Shown here piece by piece: positions 1-9,314 of a stretch of 64,000 bases of DNA (its first letter is position 1; the number at the start of each line of letters is the position of its first letter). The stretch is from a virus. Lineage: Duplodnaviria; Caudoviricetes. Where the stretch lies: IMG/VR virus record IMGVR_UViG_3300029305_003259, positions 1-64,000 of that record. One strand, 5' to 3'. The notes below the pieces were generated by a model. The model ran no database searches. It saw nothing but the letters and a program-made list of their open reading frames with translations, and was not told where the DNA came from. A program made the translations under genes and the position numbers.

Positions 1-108
1 CTCCTCATCTTCGTCTACGCCAAGACCACAGAAGTTGCGACAGTCGTAGCCACCTTGGGCATCGAATGGGCAATAAGGGTCGGGGTTATCACAGGGATAA
101 GACTTCAT
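1..108 (-). CDS. small Cys-rich hypothetical protein, runs off the window edge
   Basis: ATG at 108 after AAAAGGAG; reads MKSYPCDNPDPYCPFDAQGGYDCRNFCG. Confidence 0.6.
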   Translation of the reverse strand, partial: MKSYPCDNPDPYCPFDAQGGYDCRNFCGLGVDEDEE

Positions 109-181
109 AATTTAAACTCCTTTCAAAGTTCATACTAAGGGGCACGAAGCTGTGCCTCATGCCCCTCGATACGAATTTTGC

Positions 182-733
182 TTAACGAATGTAGTTGCGA
201 TACTCGCCGATAGTCGAGGCGCAATCAGTAATCTCCTCAGTAAACCGAATTGCCTTAGCAACCAGAATAGTGTTGTTGGGATTACGATACTGGTAATCAG
301 TACGCTTCACCAGAGCCTTCACCTTAAAGAAGCGGTTGCAGAAATCGTAGGGATACTCCTTGAAGCAATGCCGCAGATTAGTGCAAACATGATATCCCTT
401 GGTGCCCAGATTGACATTACCCTCATAGGTATCCTCGACCTGCATCCGGTACTGCTTACCCTTGCAAATCATCTCGAAGTCAGTTGCCTTGAAGGCATCC
501 ACCCAAATCCAATCCTGCTCGACAGCCTCAAAAAAGCGGTCATCAACAGAGAACTTCTTGCCTACCTTGTTGGGATCCAGATGCTCCAGAATCTCAATCT
601 TGATGTTGTTGCCGTTCTCCTTACGAGGGAAGGTCTCGACAACCTTTGCTTTACGCAGAACGGAGTTGCCACAGACGGAGTACTCAGAGTCGGCAGTGGG
701 CAGAGGGCGAATGATAGTGTCGATAGCAAACAT
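182..733 (-). CDS. phage hypothetical protein
   Basis: 183 aa, AAAAGGAG RBS; C-terminal FKATD..MxCKGxQY...GYHVC pattern typical of a common phage family. Confidence 0.75.
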   Translation of the reverse strand: MFAIDTIIRPLPTADSEYSVCGNSVLRKAKVVETFPRKENGNNIKIEILEHLDPNKVGKKFSVDDRFFEAVEQDWIWVDAFKATDFEMICKGKQYRMQVEDTYEGNVNLGTKGYHVCTNLRHCFKEYPYDFCNRFFKVKALVKRTDYQYRNPNNTILVAKAIRFTEEITDCASTIGEYRNYIR

Positions 734-870
734 AATTTAATCTCCTTTTTGTTTTGAATTTTGTTGTTAGGAACTGGTTTCGCTTAAACTTAGTAGCGCA
801 AGGTAACCACATCCTTTCTGGAGCAATAGCACTCCATGAGGCCCATAAGATTTTATGGGCCCTAGCAATG

Positions 871-987
871 TTATGCGAATTTATTTACTTCTTTGACAGC
901 TTCCTGCAAAGTATCTGCGCTGCAAAAGAACTTTCCATCAATAAAGACTTCCCAATGGCCACGGACATTGATGTAGTTGACATTCAT
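871..987 (-). CDS. small hypothetical protein (38 aa, not in ORF track)
   Basis: MNVNYINVRGHWEVFIDGKFFCSADTLQEAVKEVNKFA; GGAAAGGA upstream. Confidence 0.65.
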   Translation of the reverse strand: MNVNYINVRGHWEVFIDGKFFCSADTLQEAVKEVNKFA

Positions 988-992
988 TTGCC

Positions 993-1190
993 TTATTCCT
1001 TTCCACTTTTAAGTCTGATTACAAAGAGGTCAAAGAATGGGTTTGCGCTTTCAATTTCATAGTCGGCACACTCAATGGGGATTTTGCGCAGCACTTCTCC
1101 AATGAATCCACAGGCAATTTCCTTTCCATCTACGAAGATGGAGATTCCTTTGTAAGGGATGTCGTTGAATTTGACTTCACGGAGTTTCAT
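993..1190 (-). CDS. hypothetical protein
   Basis: start moved to MKLREV after GAAAGGA; overlaps end of upstream gene. Confidence 0.65.
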   Translation of the reverse strand: MKLREVKFNDIPYKGISIFVDGKEIACGFIGEVLRKIPIECADYEIESANPFFDLFVIRLKSGKE

Positions 1191-1431
1191 CTGATTCATC
1201 CTTTCCATTAGAAAAAGCACCTGCCATGATAGCTTCAAACAATGATGCAGTTCGTGCCTGTGCTTCTTTAAAGGTATCATTGGACAACTTATAGTACTTT
1301 TCCTTAAATTCAAGGGCTTCTTCTAACTCTCGCTTGAGCTTGCGGTTTTCATAGACAATGTCTGCCATACCAAGAATGATTTCTTCAACGAAGAATTTCC
1401 TTTCTTCTTTATCATAAAAGTCAGCCCACAT
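1177..1431 (-). CDS. hypothetical coiled-coil protein
   Basis: AAAAGGAG RBS before MWADFYD. Confidence 0.7.
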   Translation of the reverse strand: MWADFYDKEERKFFVEEIILGMADIVYENRKLKRELEEALEFKEKYYKLSNDTFKEAQARTASLFEAIMAGAFSNGKDESDETP

Positions 1432-1436
1432 TTGGT

Positions 1437-1583
1437 TTACTCCTTTTCTAAGACCTGCTTGCCGCAGTAAGGACAATACGTCCAATTAATTGCTTCCATC
1501 AGTGGATGTTCTTTTTGCCCACAATAAGGGCATTGAGCAAAATCATCGAACATACCTGCGAGTTTCCAACCTCTTATTTCCAT
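1437..1583 (-). CDS. small zinc-ribbon protein (48 aa, not in ORF track)
   Basis: MEIRGW...CPYCGQ...CPYCGKQ; two CxxC; AAAGGGAG RBS. Confidence 0.75.
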   Translation of the reverse strand: MEIRGWKLAGMFDDFAQCPYCGQKEHPLMEAINWTYCPYCGKQVLEKE

Positions 1584-1982
1584 TTAACTCTCCCTTTCTA
1601 TTTCATCATAAGGTACAATGGTTTCCAGAAATTGTGCAAATTCCTCCTTTGTCATGAAGAAATTGGTATGGCTTATATAGATGCCATCTTCAACAGAGCA
1701 GTTAATTCTGTCATCCCACTCAATAAAGTGGATGTGCTGATTGTATCGGCTCTCTTGGAACAAAGTATCGAAGAAGTATTGGATTTCTGGTGTTCGCTTA
1801 AGCCAAAAGCTTTTACGAGTACCGTCCCTACCCTCATAGCAACAGAAGATTTCCGTTGCCTTATCTTGAGGTTTATTTTTGATTTGTTTTCCATTACGGA
1901 AGTGCAGGTGTTCCCTTGCAGCTCCAAGTGATTTTGCTTGTAAGAATGGGATGCTATCTGCATCCCTACCATTAATTTTCAT
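1584..1982 (-). CDS. hypothetical protein
   Basis: AAAGGAG RBS, abuts next gene. Confidence 0.7.
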   Translation of the reverse strand: MKINGRDADSIPFLQAKSLGAAREHLHFRNGKQIKNKPQDKATEIFCCYEGRDGTRKSFWLKRTPEIQYFFDTLFQESRYNQHIHFIEWDDRINCSVEDGIYISHTNFFMTKEEFAQFLETIVPYDEIERES

Positions 1983-2166
1983 ATTCAATCTCCTTTATAA
2001 TCATAGTATCAATTGCGGCAATTGGTATGAGCCACAATAAGTTGTACATTGAGCCTCCGAGTTCTGCAGAGCCTATTAATCCAAGGGCCACAAGGAATGA
2101 TAGGAGCAGAACTATTTCCCTACTCAAAGTAGCAGTTATCAAGGTAGATGCTGTGGCTTTCATCAA
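1972..2166 (-). CDS. small membrane protein, start uncertain
   Basis: two hydrophobic segments; fills gap in operon. Confidence 0.45.
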   Translation of the reverse strand: MMKATASTLITATLSREIVLLLSFLVALGLIGSAELGGSMYNLLWLIPIAAIDTMIIKEIEYEN

Positions 2167-2407
2167 ACTTGATTTCCTTATCTGTGATTAGTGTGCCACA
2201 GAAGTTTACAAGGACAAATGGCTCGATAGTTACGGGAGTAACCCAGTCGCCATCATCGTCGTGACGGCATTGATACATGAATTTGCCTTCAGGAATGGTA
2301 TTTTTGTCGATACGGAAGTCGTAGAATTCTCCCTCATAAATTTCGCTTCCTGCAAATGCAACTAAGTGCATGATATGTTTTTGGGCTGATTGATAACTTT
2401 CTCTCAT
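2120..2407 (-). CDS. LPD28-like (polyvalent-protein-associated) domain protein
   Basis: RIDKNTIPEGKFMYQCRHDDDGDWVTPVTIEPFVLVNFCGTLIT resembles the LPD28 pattern; AAAGGAG RBS. Confidence 0.65.
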   Translation of the reverse strand: MRESYQSAQKHIMHLVAFAGSEIYEGEFYDFRIDKNTIPEGKFMYQCRHDDDGDWVTPVTIEPFVLVNFCGTLITDKEIKFDESHSIYLDNCYFE

Positions 2408-2493
2408 AGTTATCTCCTTTCGCTGGGTATATTTGGGTTTGTGAAGCCCATAATGAAAGCCACAAAGTTTCCCTTGTGGCCTTGATATAGGTT

Positions 2494-2895
2494 TCAGTTG
2501 GTATCAATGATATAATCAAATCGGATCAAAATATCATCTTCATAATTGTTGTCGGGATTGTAGACCATGTAGCTGCAAATCACATCTCCATTTTGAATTC
2601 CCTCTACACTTGCATAGCTAATGTAGTAATCGGTATAGCCGACAATGTAGCCATCGCCGGTTTCTGCATCGGTGACTACGCCCACAACTTGCTCGATAAT
2701 GAGCTTTCCGTTGCGGCCTGCAAGATCTTCCATTGAAAGGTCAGGACTGTTGACAATTTCGATAAGGTCAAGGGAGTCGGCGTAGGCATAGTAATCCATT
2801 TCGTTTGCAGATGTCTTGGCCATGATAGCCAGAGATACCAGCAGGATTACAGAGGACACGATGATTGGGAACATGTTTCGCTTATTTATATTCAT
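2494..2895 (-). CDS. membrane-anchored/secreted hypothetical protein
   Basis: N-terminal hydrophobic helix; AAAAGGAG RBS. Confidence 0.75.
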   Translation of the reverse strand: MNINKRNMFPIIVSSVILLVSLAIMAKTSANEMDYYAYADSLDLIEIVNSPDLSMEDLAGRNGKLIIEQVVGVVTDAETGDGYIVGYTDYYISYASVEGIQNGDVICSYMVYNPDNNYEDDILIRFDYIIDTN

Positions 2896-2973
2896 TTGTA
2901 TTTCTCCTTTTATTTTGAATTATGAGCAAAGCCCACATCCAAACCCTCAAAGTTTGAGGGCTTGAGGCAGGTT

Positions 2974-3303
2974 TTACTTAATAATTTCAGACGGATTTGC
3001 CTTTTGGAGATTGCACAGGAAATCGAGAACCTCTTCGGGAGTAAGGTAGCCAACTACAATATCACAGCAGTCGCCACCATTGCTCAGGAACTGGTTTGCG
3101 TCAATCAGGTCTCCCTTGTAGATTGCCGCAACTTCGGCAGTATCAGACTGAGCATCCTTATTGCAGGAGAAATCCATATCCTTTGGAAAATGGTTGTCGC
3201 AGTAGTTACCTGCTCCCCACTGCACAGAAGCAGTGAGGCCATTTTCGAAGGTAATATGAAATCCCTTGCGCTGAGTGGACACGAATTTCTTGGACATAGA
3301 CAT
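2974..3303 (-). CDS. phage hypothetical protein
   Basis: GFHITFENGLTASVQWGAGNYC pattern common in phage proteins; start moved to 3303. Confidence 0.75.
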   Translation of the reverse strand: MSMSKKFVSTQRKGFHITFENGLTASVQWGAGNYCDNHFPKDMDFSCNKDAQSDTAEVAAIYKGDLIDANQFLSNGGDCCDIVVGYLTPEEVLDFLCNLQKANPSEIIK

Positions 3304-3456
3304 TTCCCTTTCTTTTAAATTTTGCTTATTCAATTGTCGGCACTTGATTGGTTCAGTCCAAAAACAATGTCGGTCATGCCGTTTTTCATTGCCCCATTTA
3401 CCTTTCTAAGTGCTCCATGGTGCCCATAAGGTTTCCCTTGTGGACACGAGCAACAC

Positions 3457-3795
3457 TTATTCGAACATACGAGGATAGAATTTCTCTTTGAAGTTCCAGC
3501 CATTTCCCTTTAGGAATTGGTCGATAGCTTTCACAGAAGGCGCTTCGAATTCTCCCTTGACTGGCAGGGGATTGACGGGACATTTGATTTTGCAGAAAAC
3601 CTTGGGAGCTTCGCCGTTGTGATTTTCAAAACGGAACAGGGCCATAAGCTGGATTTCCCTTTCCCTTGTATATGCCTGTATGAGGCGCTCAGAAGGAGCG
3701 CCTTGGCACATACCATAGCACATCTTATCGGTGTACAGGTAGGGAAGCAAGTTCCCTTGCTTGGTGTAGATGCAGATGACGGAATACTTGGACAT
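3457..3795 (-). CDS. hypothetical protein
   Basis: 112 aa, GAAAGGA RBS. Confidence 0.7.
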   Translation of the reverse strand: MSKYSVICIYTKQGNLLPYLYTDKMCYGMCQGAPSERLIQAYTREREIQLMALFRFENHNGEAPKVFCKIKCPVNPLPVKGEFEAPSVKAIDQFLKGNGWNFKEKFYPRMFE

Positions 3796-4015
3796 ATAAT
3801 CATTTCCTTTCTCTAATGAATTTGGGCTTCACTTGGTATCCCATAATAAGGTTCGATTGCGAATTATACGGGCAGGGCAATAGTCAGTATCTCCCGCCTC
3901 TAAGGCTGTAGCTTCGCTTTACTCTCAACTGACACGGTTATCGACAGACTTTCGTCTCCCTTGCTATGGGATTGGGATGGGGCTTTTACGGATAAACCCC
4001 TCAGAACCGTTTCGC

Positions 4016-4162
4016 TTACCAGTACTTGACATACTCACGGAACTTCATCTTTCCGTTGGTAGCCCGATATACCACATACATCAGGCCAACGAAGATGGAA
4101 TAAGGAACCACGAGAACGAGGCAAAACAGGCCTCCGAAGCAAATGGCAATCAAAGCGTCCAT
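4016..4162 (-). CDS. small membrane protein (48 aa, not in ORF track)
   Basis: MDALIAICFGGLFCLVLVVPYSIFVGLMYVVYRATNGKMKFREYVKYW; GAAAGGA RBS. Confidence 0.7.
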   Translation of the reverse strand: MDALIAICFGGLFCLVLVVPYSIFVGLMYVVYRATNGKMKFREYVKYW

Positions 4163-4177
4163 TTTTCATTTCCTTTC

Positions 4178-4588
4178 TTAAATAGCATACAATTTATCGC
4201 CACGGAAAGCTCCGCAGCACTCTACGAGACCACTCTTGATGAGTTCCTTTGTGCCATAGCGGCCAAGGATTTTCTTCATTTCCCTTTCATAGATGGTATC
4301 ACCACCATGCTCGGCAATGAGCTTGTCATACAGAACTTCGGCATAGTGGTCAAGGGCATACTGGATATGGGAATGGCACAGGTTGTTCAGGTAAACTTCG
4401 GCATTGCGATTTCCCTTAGCAATTGCTTCATAGAACTTGGTTTCGATTTCCTTTGGGAAAGGGATTTCCATTTCGGAGAAGAGCTTCTGCTTTTCCTTTA
4501 GAAGAGCAGCGTTGTAGCGCTTCTCAAGGGAAGGTGTCCAAGGCTTACCCTGGGACAGATATTCGGATTTCGCTTCTAAAATGTTCAT
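4178..4588 (-). CDS. hypothetical protein
   Basis: 136 aa, ATGA overlap with upstream gene. Confidence 0.75.
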   Translation of the reverse strand: MNILEAKSEYLSQGKPWTPSLEKRYNAALLKEKQKLFSEMEIPFPKEIETKFYEAIAKGNRNAEVYLNNLCHSHIQYALDHYAEVLYDKLIAEHGGDTIYEREMKKILGRYGTKELIKSGLVECCGAFRGDKLYAI

Positions 4589-4806
4589 GGCGTATCTCCC
4601 TTCGCATTAATTTTGTGCTGTTCTTCCTTGTCGGAAAAATAGGCAACGACAAGAGAATGAGTATGAGAGATAGCGCAACGGCTACAATCAATGCGCATTC
4701 CCTTATTGCAACAACAGTTGCAGGAATGGGCAAAAGCAGAATTCGCTTCTGCCTTGGAATTTGCGGCGTACTGATAGTTCACGCCAATGGTTTCAAATTT
4801 TGTCAT
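4585..4806 (-). CDS. Cys/His-rich small protein
   Basis: HSCNCCC...CSRC...HTH; GAGGT RBS. Confidence 0.7.
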   Translation of the reverse strand: MTKFETIGVNYQYAANSKAEANSAFAHSCNCCCNKGMRIDCSRCAISHTHSLVVAYFSDKEEQHKINAKGDTP

Positions 4807-4887
4807 GAGGATACCTCGCTTCCTATGGAATTAAAATCCATAATGAAGACCATAAGATTTCGCTTATGGGCTTGATATAGATTTCAA

Positions 4888-5157
4888 TTACAAACTACTA
4901 AATCTGAAGTTGCACAATGCTTCAATAAGCATATGGTCAACAAAGAACAAACTGCAAAATCTTTGCGCAATGGTTTCTGGTTTCGTTTCTGGCTCCCAGT
5001 ACTTTGCGTTCTTGATGGCGCAAAGCGCCCTTATTGCAATATCTTGCAAAGAAGGTTCATTAAATTGTCTTGCCAGATGGTAAGCACCACCGTAAATTTC
5101 GATAGTACGAGGCCCGAAGCATTCAGCTTCAAGGCGCTTCATTATGATATCTTCCAT
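4888..5157 (-). CDS. hypothetical protein
   Basis: AAAGGGGG RBS. Confidence 0.65.
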   Translation of the reverse strand: MEDIIMKRLEAECFGPRTIEIYGGAYHLARQFNEPSLQDIAIRALCAIKNAKYWEPETKPETIAQRFCSLFFVDHMLIEALCNFRFSSL

Positions 5158-5225
5158 AGGTTCCCCCTTTCCTACAAGTTAAACCCATGACAAGGTATCT
5201 GAGATTCAGGTACTTTGTCACGGAC

Positions 5226-5456
5226 TTAACCGATAGATGAATAAATGTTGCAGGATACAGTTGCACCATTGATGGAATAGCCAACAATGTTGACCCAGCC
5301 ATACTCATAGAGATAGTCTTCCTGCCAAGAGATTTTGGAGCAATAGATTACTCCGTTGACATTGTTGCAACGCAACTGATACCGACCGTTGGCATATTCG
5401 AGCGTTTCCACCAAGACGGTCACTTCGCCCAAATCGGGCAGATATACTGATAGCAT
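5226..5456 (-). CDS. hypothetical protein
   Basis: AAGGGGG RBS. Confidence 0.65.
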   Translation of the reverse strand: MLSVYLPDLGEVTVLVETLEYANGRYQLRCNNVNGVIYCSKISWQEDYLYEYGWVNIVGYSINGATVSCNIYSSIG

Positions 5457-5468
5457 ACCATTACCCCC

Positions 5469-5732
5469 TTAGATGAATTCGGCCAAAGAGTACAAAGTGC
5501 CCTTGTAGCCCAGTAGCGTTGGAATGTCATAAGCGATAGCATAGTCTCTGGTAAACTGGTCGCCAGTATAGTTGGCGAGAAGCATATCAAAGGCGCAGTT
5601 GATGTCCTCGATGATTGCGTCAAAGGGACGGTTGTCATGTCCAAGACACATATAGATAGTCGGACGACTGTCTATTGGTAGCTTGGCTGAGCAGTAGTAC
5701 TGCCCGTTCCTGAAGTAGAATTGTACTTCCAT
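5469..5732 (-). CDS. hypothetical protein
   Basis: start moved to MEVQF after AAGGGGGTG. Confidence 0.65.
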   Translation of the reverse strand: MEVQFYFRNGQYYCSAKLPIDSRPTIYMCLGHDNRPFDAIIEDINCAFDMLLANYTGDQFTRDYAIAYDIPTLLGYKGTLYSLAEFI

Positions 5733-5760
5733 AAAATCACCCCCTTGGTGGATAAAATGC

Positions 5761-6593
5761 GTGCCATCCCGTGTCATCTCTACAGGTCTAGCCTGTAGAG
5801 GGGAATAATCCCCAGTCCCGTGTTACTTCTTGTTGGTCTTGTTGGCCTGACGGGCAGCCTTACGGCGAGCCTTGGCTGCGTCCTTGCGAGCCTGCTCCTC
5901 GGCTTCCAGTTCTTCCCAAGTCTTGGCTTCCTGACCCTTGATAATCTGAGCCAGAGCGCACTCCATCTTGGTTGCAAAGGTGCCATACTTGGCACGAGTC
6001 TTGAACTTAGAGGCGCTATCGGTCTGCTTCTTAGCGAGCTTCAGCTCCTCTTCCTTGGCAGCGATACGCTTCTCCATGTCGGCAATCCACTCCTCGGAAG
6101 CGCCGTTGTTGGGCTTGTTGAACTCGGCCTTGAGGTTCTTCAACTGGGAGTTGATGAACTCAGCATTGCCAGTCAACTGCTTGCGGTCGAGGATAGAATA
6201 CTTGCTGAGATTGTTCAGAAGCTCCTCGGACTTGTGCAGAGCGTGACCGTTGACTTCACCCACGAGGTCAAGGATAGCCTGCAGAGACTTGAAAGCCTCG
6301 GACTTGGCGTCCTTAGTGGACTTGTCGGGGTCGATGGAAGCGATGATGGTAGCGCACTCGTACTTGTAGAAGTTGCGATGTGCGTTTTCCAGAGCAGTCT
6401 TCCAAGTTGCATAGGTGTCGATACCTACCTGACCACCGTTGATAGTGGCTTCCTTGTTGTTGGCGATGGTGCTATTGCGTACCAGAGCCTGTGCGATAAT
6501 ATTCATGTTGTTGTTCATAGTGTTACCTCTTTCCTACGGTTTGACCGTATCAAATTTTATGGGTAGACCCATAGAGATAACACGGGATAGCAC
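5761..6593 (-). repeat. 30-bp imperfect inverted repeat (5761-5790 / 6564-6593) bracketing the 231-aa gene
   Basis: 26/30 identical; all four differences form G-U pairs in the minus-strand RNA. Confidence 0.85.
5823..6518 (-). CDS. basic coiled-coil protein, first gene of the leftward operon
   Basis: 231 aa; strong AAG/GAG/AAC codon bias suggesting high expression; AAAGAGGT RBS; K/R-rich tail. Confidence 0.85.
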   Translation of the reverse strand: MNNNMNIIAQALVRNSTIANNKEATINGGQVGIDTYATWKTALENAHRNFYKYECATIIASIDPDKSTKDAKSEAFKSLQAILDLVGEVNGHALHKSEELLNNLSKYSILDRKQLTGNAEFINSQLKNLKAEFNKPNNGASEEWIADMEKRIAAKEEELKLAKKQTDSASKFKTRAKYGTFATKMECALAQIIKGQEAKTWEELEAEEQARKDAAKARRKAARQANKTNKK

Positions 6594-6773
6594 ATTTTAA
6601 TGGTGTGTCAATCGTGCGTAGTTACCCATGCGAGAATTTCACTCCCATGTGCCGAGTTAGGCCATCAGCCACACGCACACCTATAACAGAAGCCTTTCTC
6701 TGGATTGCTCCAAAGTTGCACGCTCCACCCTGACGGACAGTCTTTCAGCCTATTGCAAGGCAGGGATGTGTAT

Positions 6774-6785
6774 TTTTCAAAGAAC
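6774..6785 (-). promoter_or_regulatory. boxA-like antitermination element
   Basis: GTTCTTTGAAAA on the minus strand. Confidence 0.5.
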
Positions 6786-6831
6786 AAGTGTTCTCATCAA
6801 TCGAACATGACAATCACGCCTTGAAATATAA

Positions 6832-6880
6832 TGGTACATTCAAACCTAAAGACGGCGTTATGTGGTACATTCAAACCTAA
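6832..6880. repeat. 18-bp direct repeat TGGTACATTCAAACCTAA x2, 31-bp period
   Basis: exact copies at 6832-6849 and 6863-6880. Confidence 0.9.
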
Positions 6881-6980
6881 CGTTTTTCCGTCAAACCATT
6901 TCAAGTGATAGCATAGTTCCCCATGCAATCGGATTGTATCAAATACCAACATTTTTCAATGTCAATAAGTGATTTTTCGA

Positions 6981-7000
6981 TGTTCAATTTTCAAAGAGCG
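6981..7000 (-). promoter_or_regulatory. rRNA-leader-type boxA element
   Basis: CGCTCTTTGAAAATTGAACA, about 40 nt downstream of the leftward promoter. Confidence 0.6.
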
Positions 7001-7048
7001 ATAAACCTTGCGACTGGTTTTTGTGTCGTTGTCGCTTGGTATGGTCTT

Positions 7049-7076
7049 ATTATAGCACGTTGAAAGAAAAGCGCAA
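7049..7076 (-). promoter_or_regulatory. leftward sigma-A promoter
   Basis: TTGCGC-16 nt-TATAAT with extended -10 TG. Confidence 0.6.
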
Positions 7077-7566
7077 GTAAATAGTGATTTACTGGGGGGG
7101 TGCAAAAAACCTCGCAAACCATTGAAAATAAAGGCTTTTCTGGAAGGTAGTGAACACACACACTGATTAAAAAATCAAAAAAAATATAGTGAAAAAATAC
7201 ATGATAGATTGCCAAATAAATTAGGATTAGAAATAGCCCAAAATATATTCGAAAATCCAACAATTTATCTGCCAAAAATAGAACAAAAGTTCTAGCATAC
7301 AAATTAGTACAAACGTTCTATAAACCAAAATCCACAAGTCTAAAACTAACAAAATCAATAACATATCCCAAAATCCCCAAACACACTCCACTCTAACCAG
7401 ATACCTATAAAAAATAAAAGGCCCCGTCTACATATAACCAATACCCGGGGTACTTCCAACCAAAAAAAATAAGGCACCCATACCAAAATAAGGCCCCAAT
7501 ATATATCAAAGGCAAATATACAATCCACCGTACCAAAAACAAAAGGGGGCCCCAATAAGGGCCCCG

Positions 7567-7689
7567 TATATATATTATTATTAATATTATATTGTTATAT
7601 TGTTATGTGTCCCTCTGGCTGGACTTTTTTTCCAATGAGAGGGACATTTATTCCAAAAATTAGGACACCTTATTCCAATGAGAGGGACA
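7567..7689. repeat. AT-rich tract plus iteron-like repeats; candidate origin or operator
   Basis: TTCCAATGAGAGGGACA at 7630-7646 and 7673-7689, degenerate copy 7651-7667, inverted half-site 7608-7616. Confidence 0.6.
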
Positions 7690-7697
7690 AAACCCTC

Positions 7698-7726
7698 TTG
7701 ACAAAATAAAATTTCCATGTTATACT
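7698..7726 (+). promoter_or_regulatory. sigma-A promoter
   Basis: TTGACA-17 nt-TATACT with extended TG. Confidence 0.85.
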
Positions 7727-7755
7727 CACCATACAAAATTAATGGAGGTGATGAA

Positions 7756-8052
7756 ATGTCCAAAGAGGTATCTATTGACAAGACTGCCGACCAGCCATAT
7801 TACATGTGCTCAATAGAACATAACCGCATCGCTATGCGCAACCTCACCAAGTCGGCATATTACTTATACACATACTTTATGCAAAATCAGGATGGCTACA
7901 ATTTTACCCTGCGCCGATCCCATGCCATGTCAATTACGGGCCTTTCTAAATCTTCATATTACTTGGCCCTTCAAGAACTTATTGACAAGCACTATGTAAT
8001 AGATTGCGACGATGGCTATGAATTCTATGAACGTCCGCAAGAGAACTATTGA
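7756..8052 (+). CDS. winged-HTH DNA-binding protein (Rep/regulator-like)
   Basis: LTKSAYYLYTYF...TGLSKSSYYLALQELIDKHYV HTH pattern; GGAGGTG RBS. Confidence 0.65.
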   Translation: MSKEVSIDKTADQPYYMCSIEHNRIAMRNLTKSAYYLYTYFMQNQDGYNFTLRRSHAMSITGLSKSSYYLALQELIDKHYVIDCDDGYEFYERPQENY

Positions 8053-8077
8053 CAAATGATGGGAAATATGTTATAAT
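8049..8077 (+). promoter_or_regulatory. consensus sigma-A promoter
   Basis: TTGACA-17 nt-TATAAT with extended TG. Confidence 0.9.
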
Positions 8078-8115
8078 CATGTCAATGATACAACACAAAA
8101 TTAATGGAGGTACAA

Positions 8116-8424
8116 ATGGAAACCACTACTCTTAAAGAGCGTATTCTGCCAGAAGAACGTGAAACACATCTTTGGTTCGATCCCATGACCAATCTTTGGC
8201 GTATGAACAGCAACATCAGTCGCCACTTCAATAAGGCCCAGCGCGCAGGTTGGACTCCTGTGCGTCAATATGTATATGATGACGGTTATGTGGCCGCTAT
8301 GGAGCTTGAGGCTCCTGAACGTGGCATCACCATTAAGACCCCTAAGAAGCGTGAATTTAGTGATGAGCATAAGGCTAAGCTGCTTGGCCAGAATGAGGAT
8401 TTAGAAGAAGAATTTGAAGATTAA
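8116..8424 (+). CDS. phage hypothetical protein
   Basis: GGAGGT RBS; ERET motif near the N-terminus. Confidence 0.8.
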   Translation: METTTLKERILPEERETHLWFDPMTNLWRMNSNISRHFNKAQRAGWTPVRQYVYDDGYVAAMELEAPERGITIKTPKKREFSDEHKAKLLGQNEDLEEEFED

Positions 8425-8505
8425 GTTAAAGATGAGTATTTACCCTGCCGGGAGCACAGAAATATAAAATCGCATTCTAAATGCACAATCTAGGAGGAAA
8501 TAATA

Positions 8506-8868
8506 ATGTTTGATGATAAACCAATTAAGTCTTGGACTTTGGAAGAAGCAATGGATTATTGCAGAGAATATAGATTCAAATTTAAAGAAGAATTTTGCGA
8601 AGAATCCGATGGTTGCGAATTGAACAACCGAGGAATCTGTTGTGAAGCTTGGGTGCATGATTGGAAATTAGATACATACAGACATGAAGAAATTGATGAT
8701 GCATCAAAGATTCTTCATTTATTCCCTGACGCAATGTCGGTTGAAAGACATGCTAATGCCCTTATGGTCAAATATAATGATTCATATTATGCAAATATTG
8801 ATTCTAATCTATTCCCATCTATTAAAGTTGGTCAGAAGGTAATGTTAAAAAATATTTTGGAGAATTAA
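8506..8868 (+). CDS. hypothetical protein
   Basis: AGGAGG RBS. Confidence 0.75.
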   Translation: MFDDKPIKSWTLEEAMDYCREYRFKFKEEFCEESDGCELNNRGICCEAWVHDWKLDTYRHEEIDDASKILHLFPDAMSVERHANALMVKYNDSYYANIDSNLFPSIKVGQKVMLKNILEN

Positions 8869-8870
8869 TT

Positions 8871-9314
8871 ATGGTTTACAAAGAAGAAGTGCGAGATCTA
8901 TTCTCTGCGCCAGATGACTATTATCTGGCCCATTGCATCAGTGCAGACTATGCCCTTGGTGCTGGTATTGCCGTAGAATTCAACAAGCGCTTTGATATGC
9001 GCAGAAAGTTGCGTGAATATGCGCCAGACTTTGGTGTATGCATGAAGTATTTCGGCTTTGAAGGTGGATGCTTATTGGTTGATCATGTGCTAAATCTAGT
9101 CACAAAAGATAAATATTATAATAAGCCAACCTATCGTTCTATGCAGTCAGCACTAGGAGAAATGAAGATGATTTGCAACTCAAACAATATCACCAAAGTT
9201 GCAATGCCACTGATTGGTTGCGGCCTTGATAGATTGCAATGGGATAAGGTGTCGCAAATGATTAAAGACACATTTGCTGATACTGATATTGAAATTTTAA
9301 TTTGTAAGAGGTGA
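8871..9314 (+). CDS. macro-domain protein (TARG1/Poa1p-like ADP-ribose hydrolase class)
   Basis: AHCISAD..LGAGIA, LVTK..YY.KPTY, AMPLIGCGLDRLQW motifs. Confidence 0.85.
   Translation: MVYKEEVRDLFSAPDDYYLAHCISADYALGAGIAVEFNKRFDMRRKLREYAPDFGVCMKYFGFEGGCLLVDHVLNLVTKDKYYNKPTYRSMQSALGEMKMICNSNNITKVAMPLIGCGLDRLQWDKVSQMIKDTFADTDIEILICKR

Follow-up and report, generated by a model that had tools for sequence, protein, structure and literature searches.

A covarying long-range RNA helix around a single phage protein gene, with likeness to ribosomal RNA leader-trailer helices

The early RNAs of bacteriophage T7 contain long hairpins that are processed by RNase III, with a strong ribosome site after each of them. 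The early polycistronic RNAs of phage SP82 are also processed by RNase III (Panganiban and Whiteley, 1983; Hue et al., 1995; both as cited in PMC4838370 and PMC7509114). In bacteria, leader-trailer helices are formed on the precursors of 16S and 23S ribosomal RNA (rRNA), and the antitermination complex of rrn operons has been proposed to retain the leader strand until the trailer strand has been made (PMC8632103; PMC10250234). Furthermore, a recent study reports that Bacillus subtilis RNase III cuts long-range intramolecular duplexes of 10-36 base pairs (bp) in messenger RNAs (mRNAs), in which U-G wobbles are enriched (Taggart et al., 2025; PMC11780869). Here we describe an arrangement of this kind around a protein gene of an uncultured phage (Duplodnaviria; Caudoviricetes). 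The stretch of DNA analysed, hereafter the window, comprises positions 1 to 64,000 of the IMG/VR virus record IMGVR_UViG_3300029305_003259, and the element in question is a 30-bp RNA helix that brackets one open reading frame (ORF) of 231 amino acids (aa) on the minus strand, the first gene of an early operon.

The reading that we favour, and hold to be somewhat better than an even bet, is that this is a helix of the leader-trailer type, as on 16S and 23S precursors, placed around a protein cistron, and that it combines masking of the ribosome site, its release and the cutting of the RNA. A preliminary description of the locus, made from the nucleotide sequence, had proposed selection on RNA, a likeness to rRNA processing stems, and either a conformational switch or an excised, possibly circularised message. 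The first two proposals were strengthened in the present analysis and the switch acquired a definite form, while circularisation lost ground.

Geometry and conservation of the helix

Minus-strand nucleotides 6593-6564 pair with nucleotides 5790-5761 over 30 consecutive pairs, the minus strand being the sense strand of the 231-aa ORF. The pairing given in the preliminary description was recovered by reading the minus strand, by a repeat finder (arms 5761-5793 and 6561-6593, 33 nucleotides (nt), 85% complementary at the DNA level) and in the minimum-free-energy fold of the 881-nt RNA (z = -3.9). The duplex energy is -53.4 kcal/mol. All four departures from Watson-Crick pairing, at helix positions 5, 15, 23 and 24 (U-G, U-G, U-G and G-U), are indeed wobble pairs in the sense strand only, and they appear as A-C mismatches on the plus strand. 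A helix scan of both strands, allowing G-U pairs and strand separations of 60-5000 nt, was run on the 64-kb window and on the whole 128,431-bp record, and in the window and the 128-kb genome alike this helix was the sole one scoring at least 45. Its score was 72 in the sense strand and 51 in the antisense strand, and ten composition-matched shuffles gave maxima of 37-46. In this genome only, nucleotides 6599-6594 can extend the pairing of the 5' arm by six pairs over a 2-nt bulge. Searches with Rfam over window positions 1-9000 matched no family, the enclosed unit included.

Two further elements of the preliminary description were also found, namely a competing local hairpin for each arm (TATGGG/CCCATA at 6573-6558 and CTCTACAGG/CCTGTAGAG at 5800-5778) and a second partial partner over the stop codon (5830-5816). 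An intrinsic terminator was considered for the 3' strand and rejected because the U-tract that follows it is not conserved, a U4 run being found only in the window and in the relative L042 and being absent in L002, L004, L040 and L046, and because the next gene follows closely.

Assemblies of gut and rumen metagenomes yielded 30 homologues of the 231-aa protein. The DNA on both sides of the gene was fetched for thirteen of these and for 23 distant IMG/VR relatives, and flank pairing was assessed by local helix alignment; whole-flank RNAduplex gave only uninformative end-to-end duplexes. With the single protein, neither nucleotide nor protein searches in the phage collection and in IMG/VR returned a match, and a scan of JGI metagenomes with the alignment was likewise negative. 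Nine IMG/VR contigs carry an exact 16-mer of the arm core, a number estimated to be within the chance range for a collection of that size. Within one sub-clade, at 63-72% protein identity, all members with both flanks on the contig have the bracketing helix (L002/L003, L004/L043, L040, L042 and L046), and the truncated contigs L001, L038 and L039 show one arm.

The covariation check in related phages that had been proposed was run with RNAalifold, unguided, on an alignment of 898 columns and seven sequences. It returned the same 30 pairs with no broken cells; nine pairs have changes on both sides and six have switches between G-U and Watson-Crick pairing, and pairs that RNAalifold placed inside the ORF were broken much more frequently. 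In our own count over six distinct sequences, all 180 cells are paired (27 as G-U, none as A-C), against 153 of 180 when the same columns are read as antisense. Not one of 500 column shuffles matched the observed pairing, the covariation or the number of compensatory pairs. Column identity is 0.92 in the arms, 0.99 in the arm core and 0.81 in the ORF. The covariation and the strict restriction of G-U pairs to the sense strand therefore indicate that the helix is selected as RNA and not as a DNA repeat, as had been suggested, and that it is a structure under selection at the RNA level can be regarded as settled.

In clades of the family without the helix, the best flank-to-flank helix scores no higher than shuffles. 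At the corresponding places these clades form a long local hairpin within the leader, in many cases with CTATGGG...CCCATAG at its base, and a further two hairpins past the stop codon. In L036, L035, L041 and L018 the leader hairpin precedes the homologous gene by about 50-110 nt, and its CTATGGG...CCCATAG words are those that form the short hairpin H3 in the window (Table 1). Hairpins H3 and H2 look like remains of these local hairpins, and the long-range helix may have arisen in one sub-clade as a merger of the 5' and 3' local hairpins.

Leader elements, ribosome site and neighbouring cistrons

A leftward promoter precedes the helix, and its -35 element and TGnTATAMT motif are kept in all five relatives with sufficient upstream DNA. 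A search for terminator-like sites between the promoter and the 5' arm found none. Since a conserved promoter stands about 450 nt upstream and no terminator intervenes, the 5' arm lies inside the transcript; the preliminary description had named a transcript start downstream of the 5' arm as a result that would speak against it, and the conserved promoter places the start on the other side. A second candidate (TTGACA at 6612-6607 with TGcTATCCC), from which transcription would start within the arm, was rejected as the main start because its -35 element is absent in all relatives.

Two boxA-like elements were identified in the leader. The 14-mer GYTCYTTGAWAAHT has two matches in 128 kb, both in this leader and on the transcribed strand, where 0.02 would be expected. 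When bacterial genomes were scanned for TGTTCTTTGAAAAMT, at least 120 stretches were returned, and among the 122 matches listed 24 lie 31-205 nt upstream of a 16S start and nine precede a 23S start. The extended rrn leader/spacer motif TGTTCTTTGAAAACTGAAYA is identical to the phage boxes. These matches to sequences upstream of 16S and 23S genes suggest that the leader boxes are boxA elements of the rrn type, and with two such motifs in the leader the earlier comparison to 16S/23S processing stems is strengthened. Most of the phage family, and with it most of the clades without the helix, has boxA-like boxes in the leader as well.

Between the two boxes stand exact 18-nt direct repeats, for which three matches were found at up to three mismatches (0.11 expected). 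They are also present in L002, L004 and L040, and L004 changes GGT..ACC to GGC..GCC in each copy, which may point to small boxB-like hairpins or to a site for a protein. The segment between the second box and the 5' arm (6600-6770, minus strand) is ORF-free and GC-richer, holds several hairpins and is partly conserved in relatives; nucleotides 6721-6649 have a predicted fold of -24.8 kcal/mol. Further upstream, the minus strand at 7400-7613 holds a promoter-like site (7613-7586), a GC-rich terminator hairpin (7565-7546) and several GGGGCC..TTATTTT repeats, which may represent a short transcript or tandem terminators ahead of the leftward promoter. This region is overlapped by a weak and non-significant Rfam match to the L20 leader. 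On the plus strand, two near-perfect TTGACA-17-TATAAT/TATACT promoters with a TG extension (7698-7726 and 8049-8077) direct transcription of the rightward genes, which diverge from the leftward operon.

The 5' arm core can also pair with the Shine-Dalgarno (SD) and AUG region of the enclosed gene, with a duplex energy of -16.0 kcal/mol, and the local fold of 6583-6520 is predicted to mask the SD sequence. The arm core is invariant in all six aligned sequences, as is the SD region (GAGGTAACA) in relatives. When transcripts ending before the 3' arm were folded, the probability that AGAGG is unpaired was 0.07 for the window and between 0.02 and 0.14 for five relatives. Once the 3' arm is included, the 5' arm moves to the long helix, and the corresponding values are higher, at 0.42 and 0.26-0.70. 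The ribosome site is thus predicted to remain masked until the 3' arm is made in six of six homologues; in stem-less relatives, folding of truncated transcripts gave no consistent change in SD accessibility. The 3' arm core and element B, which overlaps the stop codon, are look-alikes of the ribosome site and start region (6529-6520), and the partners of the 5' arm follow the same order in synthesis and in stability (SD region, -16.0; element B, -20.6; 3' arm, -53.4 kcal/mol). Folding of this kind gives the conformational switch of the preliminary description a concrete form, in which the 5' arm core would be an anti-SD sequence that leaves the ribosome site when it pairs with the 3' arm.

Hairpin H3 is kept in L042 with a compensatory change (TGAGC..GCTCA), hairpin H2 has a compensatory change in L002 (CTCTACGG..CCGTAGAG), and element B has changed from CGGGA to CAAGA in step with the arms in L004, L038, L040 and L001.

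The enclosed protein matches no Pfam or PHROG family. Its AlphaFold model has a predicted local distance difference test (pLDDT) score of 90.8, with two short strands (residues 109-115 and 169-175) and a basic C-terminal helix, and structural searches gave no convincing fold match (Foldseek E-values of at least 0.13; VIA-align Z of at most 7.5, on a single helical hairpin). The small hairpin at 6535-6549 shows compensatory changes and has an equivalent in all clades. A G-rich hairpin likewise stands in all clades at the position of H1. The ribosome site and start region of the next gene begin 14 nt past the 3' arm with no terminator between, and in L040, L042, L046 and L001 the next gene lies 6-20 nt past the arm. 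Five hairpins on the minus strand of the same operon (5236-5172, 3472-3407, 2988-2917, 2496-2442 and 189-117; -27 to -36 kcal/mol) lie between cistrons, each without a U-tract and with a strong purine-rich ribosome site directly after it; these may be local sites for RNase III or stabilising elements of the early operon. A host among the Firmicutes is suggested by the strong SD sites, by the TGn-extended promoters and by distant matches of the terminase to phages of Clostridioides, Bacillus and Staphylococcus.

Table 1. Features of the bracketed gene and its leader, with positions in the window.
Feature	Position	Strand	Basis
Leftward promoter: -35 TTGCGC (7076-7071), 16-nt spacer, extended -10 TGcTATAAT (7057-7049); predicted start ~7042	7049..7076	-	
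boxA-like element 1, GCTCTTTGAAAATTGAACA, ~45 nt past predicted start	6981..6999	-	Motif match, conserved in relatives
Exact 18-nt direct repeat in two copies, TTAGGTTTGAATGTACCA, separated by 31 nt, between boxA elements	6832..6880	-	
boxA-like element 2, TTGTTCTTTGAAAAATA, ~177 nt before 5' arm	6771..6787	-	Motif match, relatives
5' arm of long-range helix	6564..6593	-	Repeat finder, minimum-free-energy fold, covariation
5' arm core GUGUUAUCUC, putative anti-SD; alternative pairing with SD/AUG region 6529-6520	6574..6583	-	Local minimum-free-energy fold, truncated folds
Local hairpin H3, UAUGGG-ucua-CCCAUA, competes for inner 5' arm	6558..6573	-	Folding
Small hairpin UACGGU-caa-ACCGUA, directly 5' of ribosome site	6535..6549	-	RNAalifold columns 81-95
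SD AGAGG (6530-6526), 7-nt spacer, AUG (6518-6516)	6516..6530	-	Read from sequence
ORF, 231 aa, mostly helical, basic C-terminal tail	5823..6518	-	ORF list, 30 homologues
Element B, AGAAGUAACACGGGA, over stop codon; 15-nt alternative partner of 5' arm	5816..5830	-	Repeat finder, duplex energy
Hairpin H1, GGGG-auuauu-CCCC, past stop codon	5800..5813	-	RNAalifold columns 822-835, folding
Local hairpin H2, CUCUACAGG-cuaga-CCUGUAGAG, competes for inner 3' arm	5778..5800	-	Folding
3' arm of long-range helix	5761..5790	-	Repeat finder, minimum-free-energy fold, covariation
Next gene (5469-5732): strong ribosome site AAGGGGGUG, AUG (5732-5730)	5730..5746	-	

Proposed mechanism and alternative explanations

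With a promoter, boxA elements and a leader-trailer helix around the product, the layout copies that of an rRNA operon, and the phage seems to treat a protein message as cells treat rRNA. In the proposed sequence of events, host RNA polymerase would start at the conserved promoter (~7049-7076), and the two transcribed boxA elements would probably recruit NusB/S10, giving a termination-resistant, ribosome-independent complex. The 5' arm would be made next. Before the 3' arm exists, its core (6583-6574) would park on the SD/AUG region of its own message (6529-6520) and shut ribosomes out. The 5' arm would then trade up in the order of synthesis, from the SD region to element B at the stop codon and on to the 3' arm, and the 30-bp helix would win only once the whole ORF has been transcribed, freeing the ribosome site.

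A near-perfect 30-bp duplex would be the kind of substrate that host RNase III accepts, and its length is within the 10-36 bp range given for B. subtilis RNase III duplexes (PMC11780869). We infer that the host enzyme likely cuts the helix; no RNase III gene was found in the phage record, so it is the host enzyme that would act. A central staggered cut would release the boxA leader and the downstream cistrons from the mRNA, leave the cut ends held in a duplex of about 15 bp and destroy the anti-SD sequence permanently. The half-helices left by such a cut are calculated to stay paired (-20.8 and -26.5 kcal/mol), and the closed ends may stabilise the cut mRNA. A fuller version, which we put forward only tentatively and consider doubtful, is that the boxA-NusB/S10 complex keeps the leader with the moving polymerase and delivers the 5' arm to the 3' arm when the latter emerges, that translation is thereby licensed at completion of the message, and that RNase III makes the step irreversible by cutting the anti-SD sequence.

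Several observations weigh against the combined model of masking, release and cutting. Sister lineages at 60-62% identity (L005, L041 and L044) are without the long-range helix, which is therefore not essential to the gene, and relatives at 26-38% identity from phages of about 150 kb likewise lack it. Element B has been lost in the helix-bearing relatives L002, L042 and L046. The anti-SD switch is derived from thermodynamic folding of long RNAs, and the anti-SD core and the SD sequence are both invariant, so that covariation is no test of their pairing. The arms are separated by 768 nt, against a maximum of 505 nt given for B. subtilis (PMC11780869). The spacing between boxA and boxC in Enterobacteriaceae is 18-19 nt (PMC10250234), and with about 177 nt between the second box and the 5' arm the delivery step may not apply here. 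Finally, the 16S leader-trailer helix of Escherichia coli is essential independently of RNase III.

That last observation fits the alternative that survives best, although we regard it as unlikely. Here the helix would be purely a translational timer, a folding device or a cistron insulator, and any nuclease cut would have no functional part. The masking and release of the SD sequence predicted in all six homologues are in keeping with such a timer, and the mRNAs of type I toxins use metastable SD-masking structures together with 5'-3' pairing (PMC6733600; PMC5416894). Against it, displacing a 10-bp anti-SD pairing would take far less than 30 bp, and the other long hairpins of the operon point to processing. 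RNase III is common in bacteria, and a near-perfect duplex of 30 bp is hard to hide from it, which also counts against a timer that is never cut to any effect.

A negative role is less probable still. RNase III cuts in the leaders of the rnc and pnp mRNAs destabilise those messages (PMC4838370), and the duplex fits the class of RNase III substrates, so a cut could start decay of the cistron and limit the early protein. Both halves of a cut helix would be stable duplexes, however, and the new ends would therefore be shielded; the gene also keeps a strong ribosome site with a hairpin just upstream.

Inverted repeats of about 30 bp around a segment of 0.8 kb are typical of invertible elements, and the arms are 85% complementary as DNA. 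We nevertheless give very little credence to the arms being DNA sites, whether they would delimit a stretch that a recombinase inverts as an on/off switch or a mobile cassette. In the sense strand the 27 cells that depart from Watson-Crick pairing are G-U throughout, with no A-C among them. Nine pairs covary although the sequences of the arms have drifted, and such drift would not be tolerated at a site bound by a protein. Furthermore, the assemblies show a single orientation in eight of eight contigs with both flanks, ten neighbouring ORFs match no recombinase and no Pfam family, and relatives that lack the repeat have the gene in the same position.

Elsewhere in the genome (about 105.3-106.7 kb), a 466-aa ORF on the minus strand (L048:1375-2775) has sub-threshold matches to RNA_ligase (PF09414) and to the PHA02142 OB-fold family, and it is possibly a phage RNA or DNA ligase. 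Ligation of the excised mRNA into a circle, as raised in the preliminary description, is the least credible of the alternatives and was not borne out: this sole ligase-like ORF lies 100 kb away with matches below the curated cut-offs, no RtcB was found in the phage record (which is only 78% complete, so that a missing gene says little in either direction), and RNase III would leave ends on opposite duplex strands with overhangs, not a nick, and hence no obvious substrate for ligation.

Comparison with known systems

Literature searches returned no paper describing phage mRNAs enclosed by helices of the leader-trailer type, and a text search with the boxA sequence turned up nothing of use. Leader-trailer helices, boxA elements, RNase III sites and anti-SD switches are all already known, and it is their combination around a phage protein gene that is new. 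An anti-SD strand of this sort would be a simple way to hold translation back until transcription ends. This is relevant in Firmicutes, where RNA polymerase has been reported to outrun ribosomes. With about 870 nt the element is compact; it is strongly supported by covariation and could be moved into a model host.

Control of a ribosome site by pairing of distant message ends is known from the icaR mRNA of Staphylococcus aureus, which, like the phage RNA, is a Firmicutes mRNA whose paired ends are an RNase III substrate (PMC3868564). The two differ in sign, since the 3' untranslated region of icaR masks the ribosome site and represses, whereas the phage 3' arm is predicted to unmask it. Type I toxin mRNAs such as hok and aapA1 mask the ribosome site during transcription by successive metastable structures and then form a long-distance 5'-3' interaction, an order comparable to that predicted for the phage RNA (PMC6733600; PMC5416894). 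The final pairing there locks the message off until the 3' end is trimmed, which is not the case in the phage model, and the genes encode tiny toxins accompanied by antisense RNAs. Neither applies to the phage, where the ORF has 231 aa and a confident, soluble helical model.

The B. subtilis RNase III targets share with the phage helix a length of 10-36 bp, distant pairing segments and U-G wobbles (Taggart et al., 2025; PMC11780869). Their segments lie at most 505 nt apart, and the available text of the study does not describe them as enclosing exactly one ORF. The phage helix, as known here from sequence and folding, spans 768 nt and encloses exactly one cistron. The early RNAs of SP82 and T7 resemble the phage operon in being transcripts of the host polymerase with intercistronic stems that lack U-tracts and with strong purine-rich ribosome sites. 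The processing sites of T7 and SP82 are local hairpins, whereas the strands around the first cistron of the present phage lie on either side of the gene. By analogy, the ribosome site after each stem of the phage operon could stabilise the downstream product.

The closest likeness is to the leader-trailer helices of rrn operons (PMC10250234; PMC8632103). In both cases long-range complementarity flanks one discrete RNA product, the pairing is kept by covariation, boxA stands in the leader past a strong promoter and the duplex has a size suited to RNase III. The differences are that the phage helix encloses a protein cistron with its own ribosome site rather than rRNA, that boxA and arm are about 177 nt apart and not 18-19 nt, that the 5' strand doubles as a putative anti-SD sequence, and that the arm sequences are unlike the rrn leader sequences beside boxA in the sampled genomes. 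One element would thus join the leader-trailer helix and boxA of rRNA synthesis with the RNase III sites of T7-type early RNAs. If the reading is true, the phage has co-opted the transcription and chaperone machinery of rRNA for an mRNA, which suggests that phages can borrow the expression logic of rRNA (antitermination, co-transcriptional strand delivery and excision) for a protein message.

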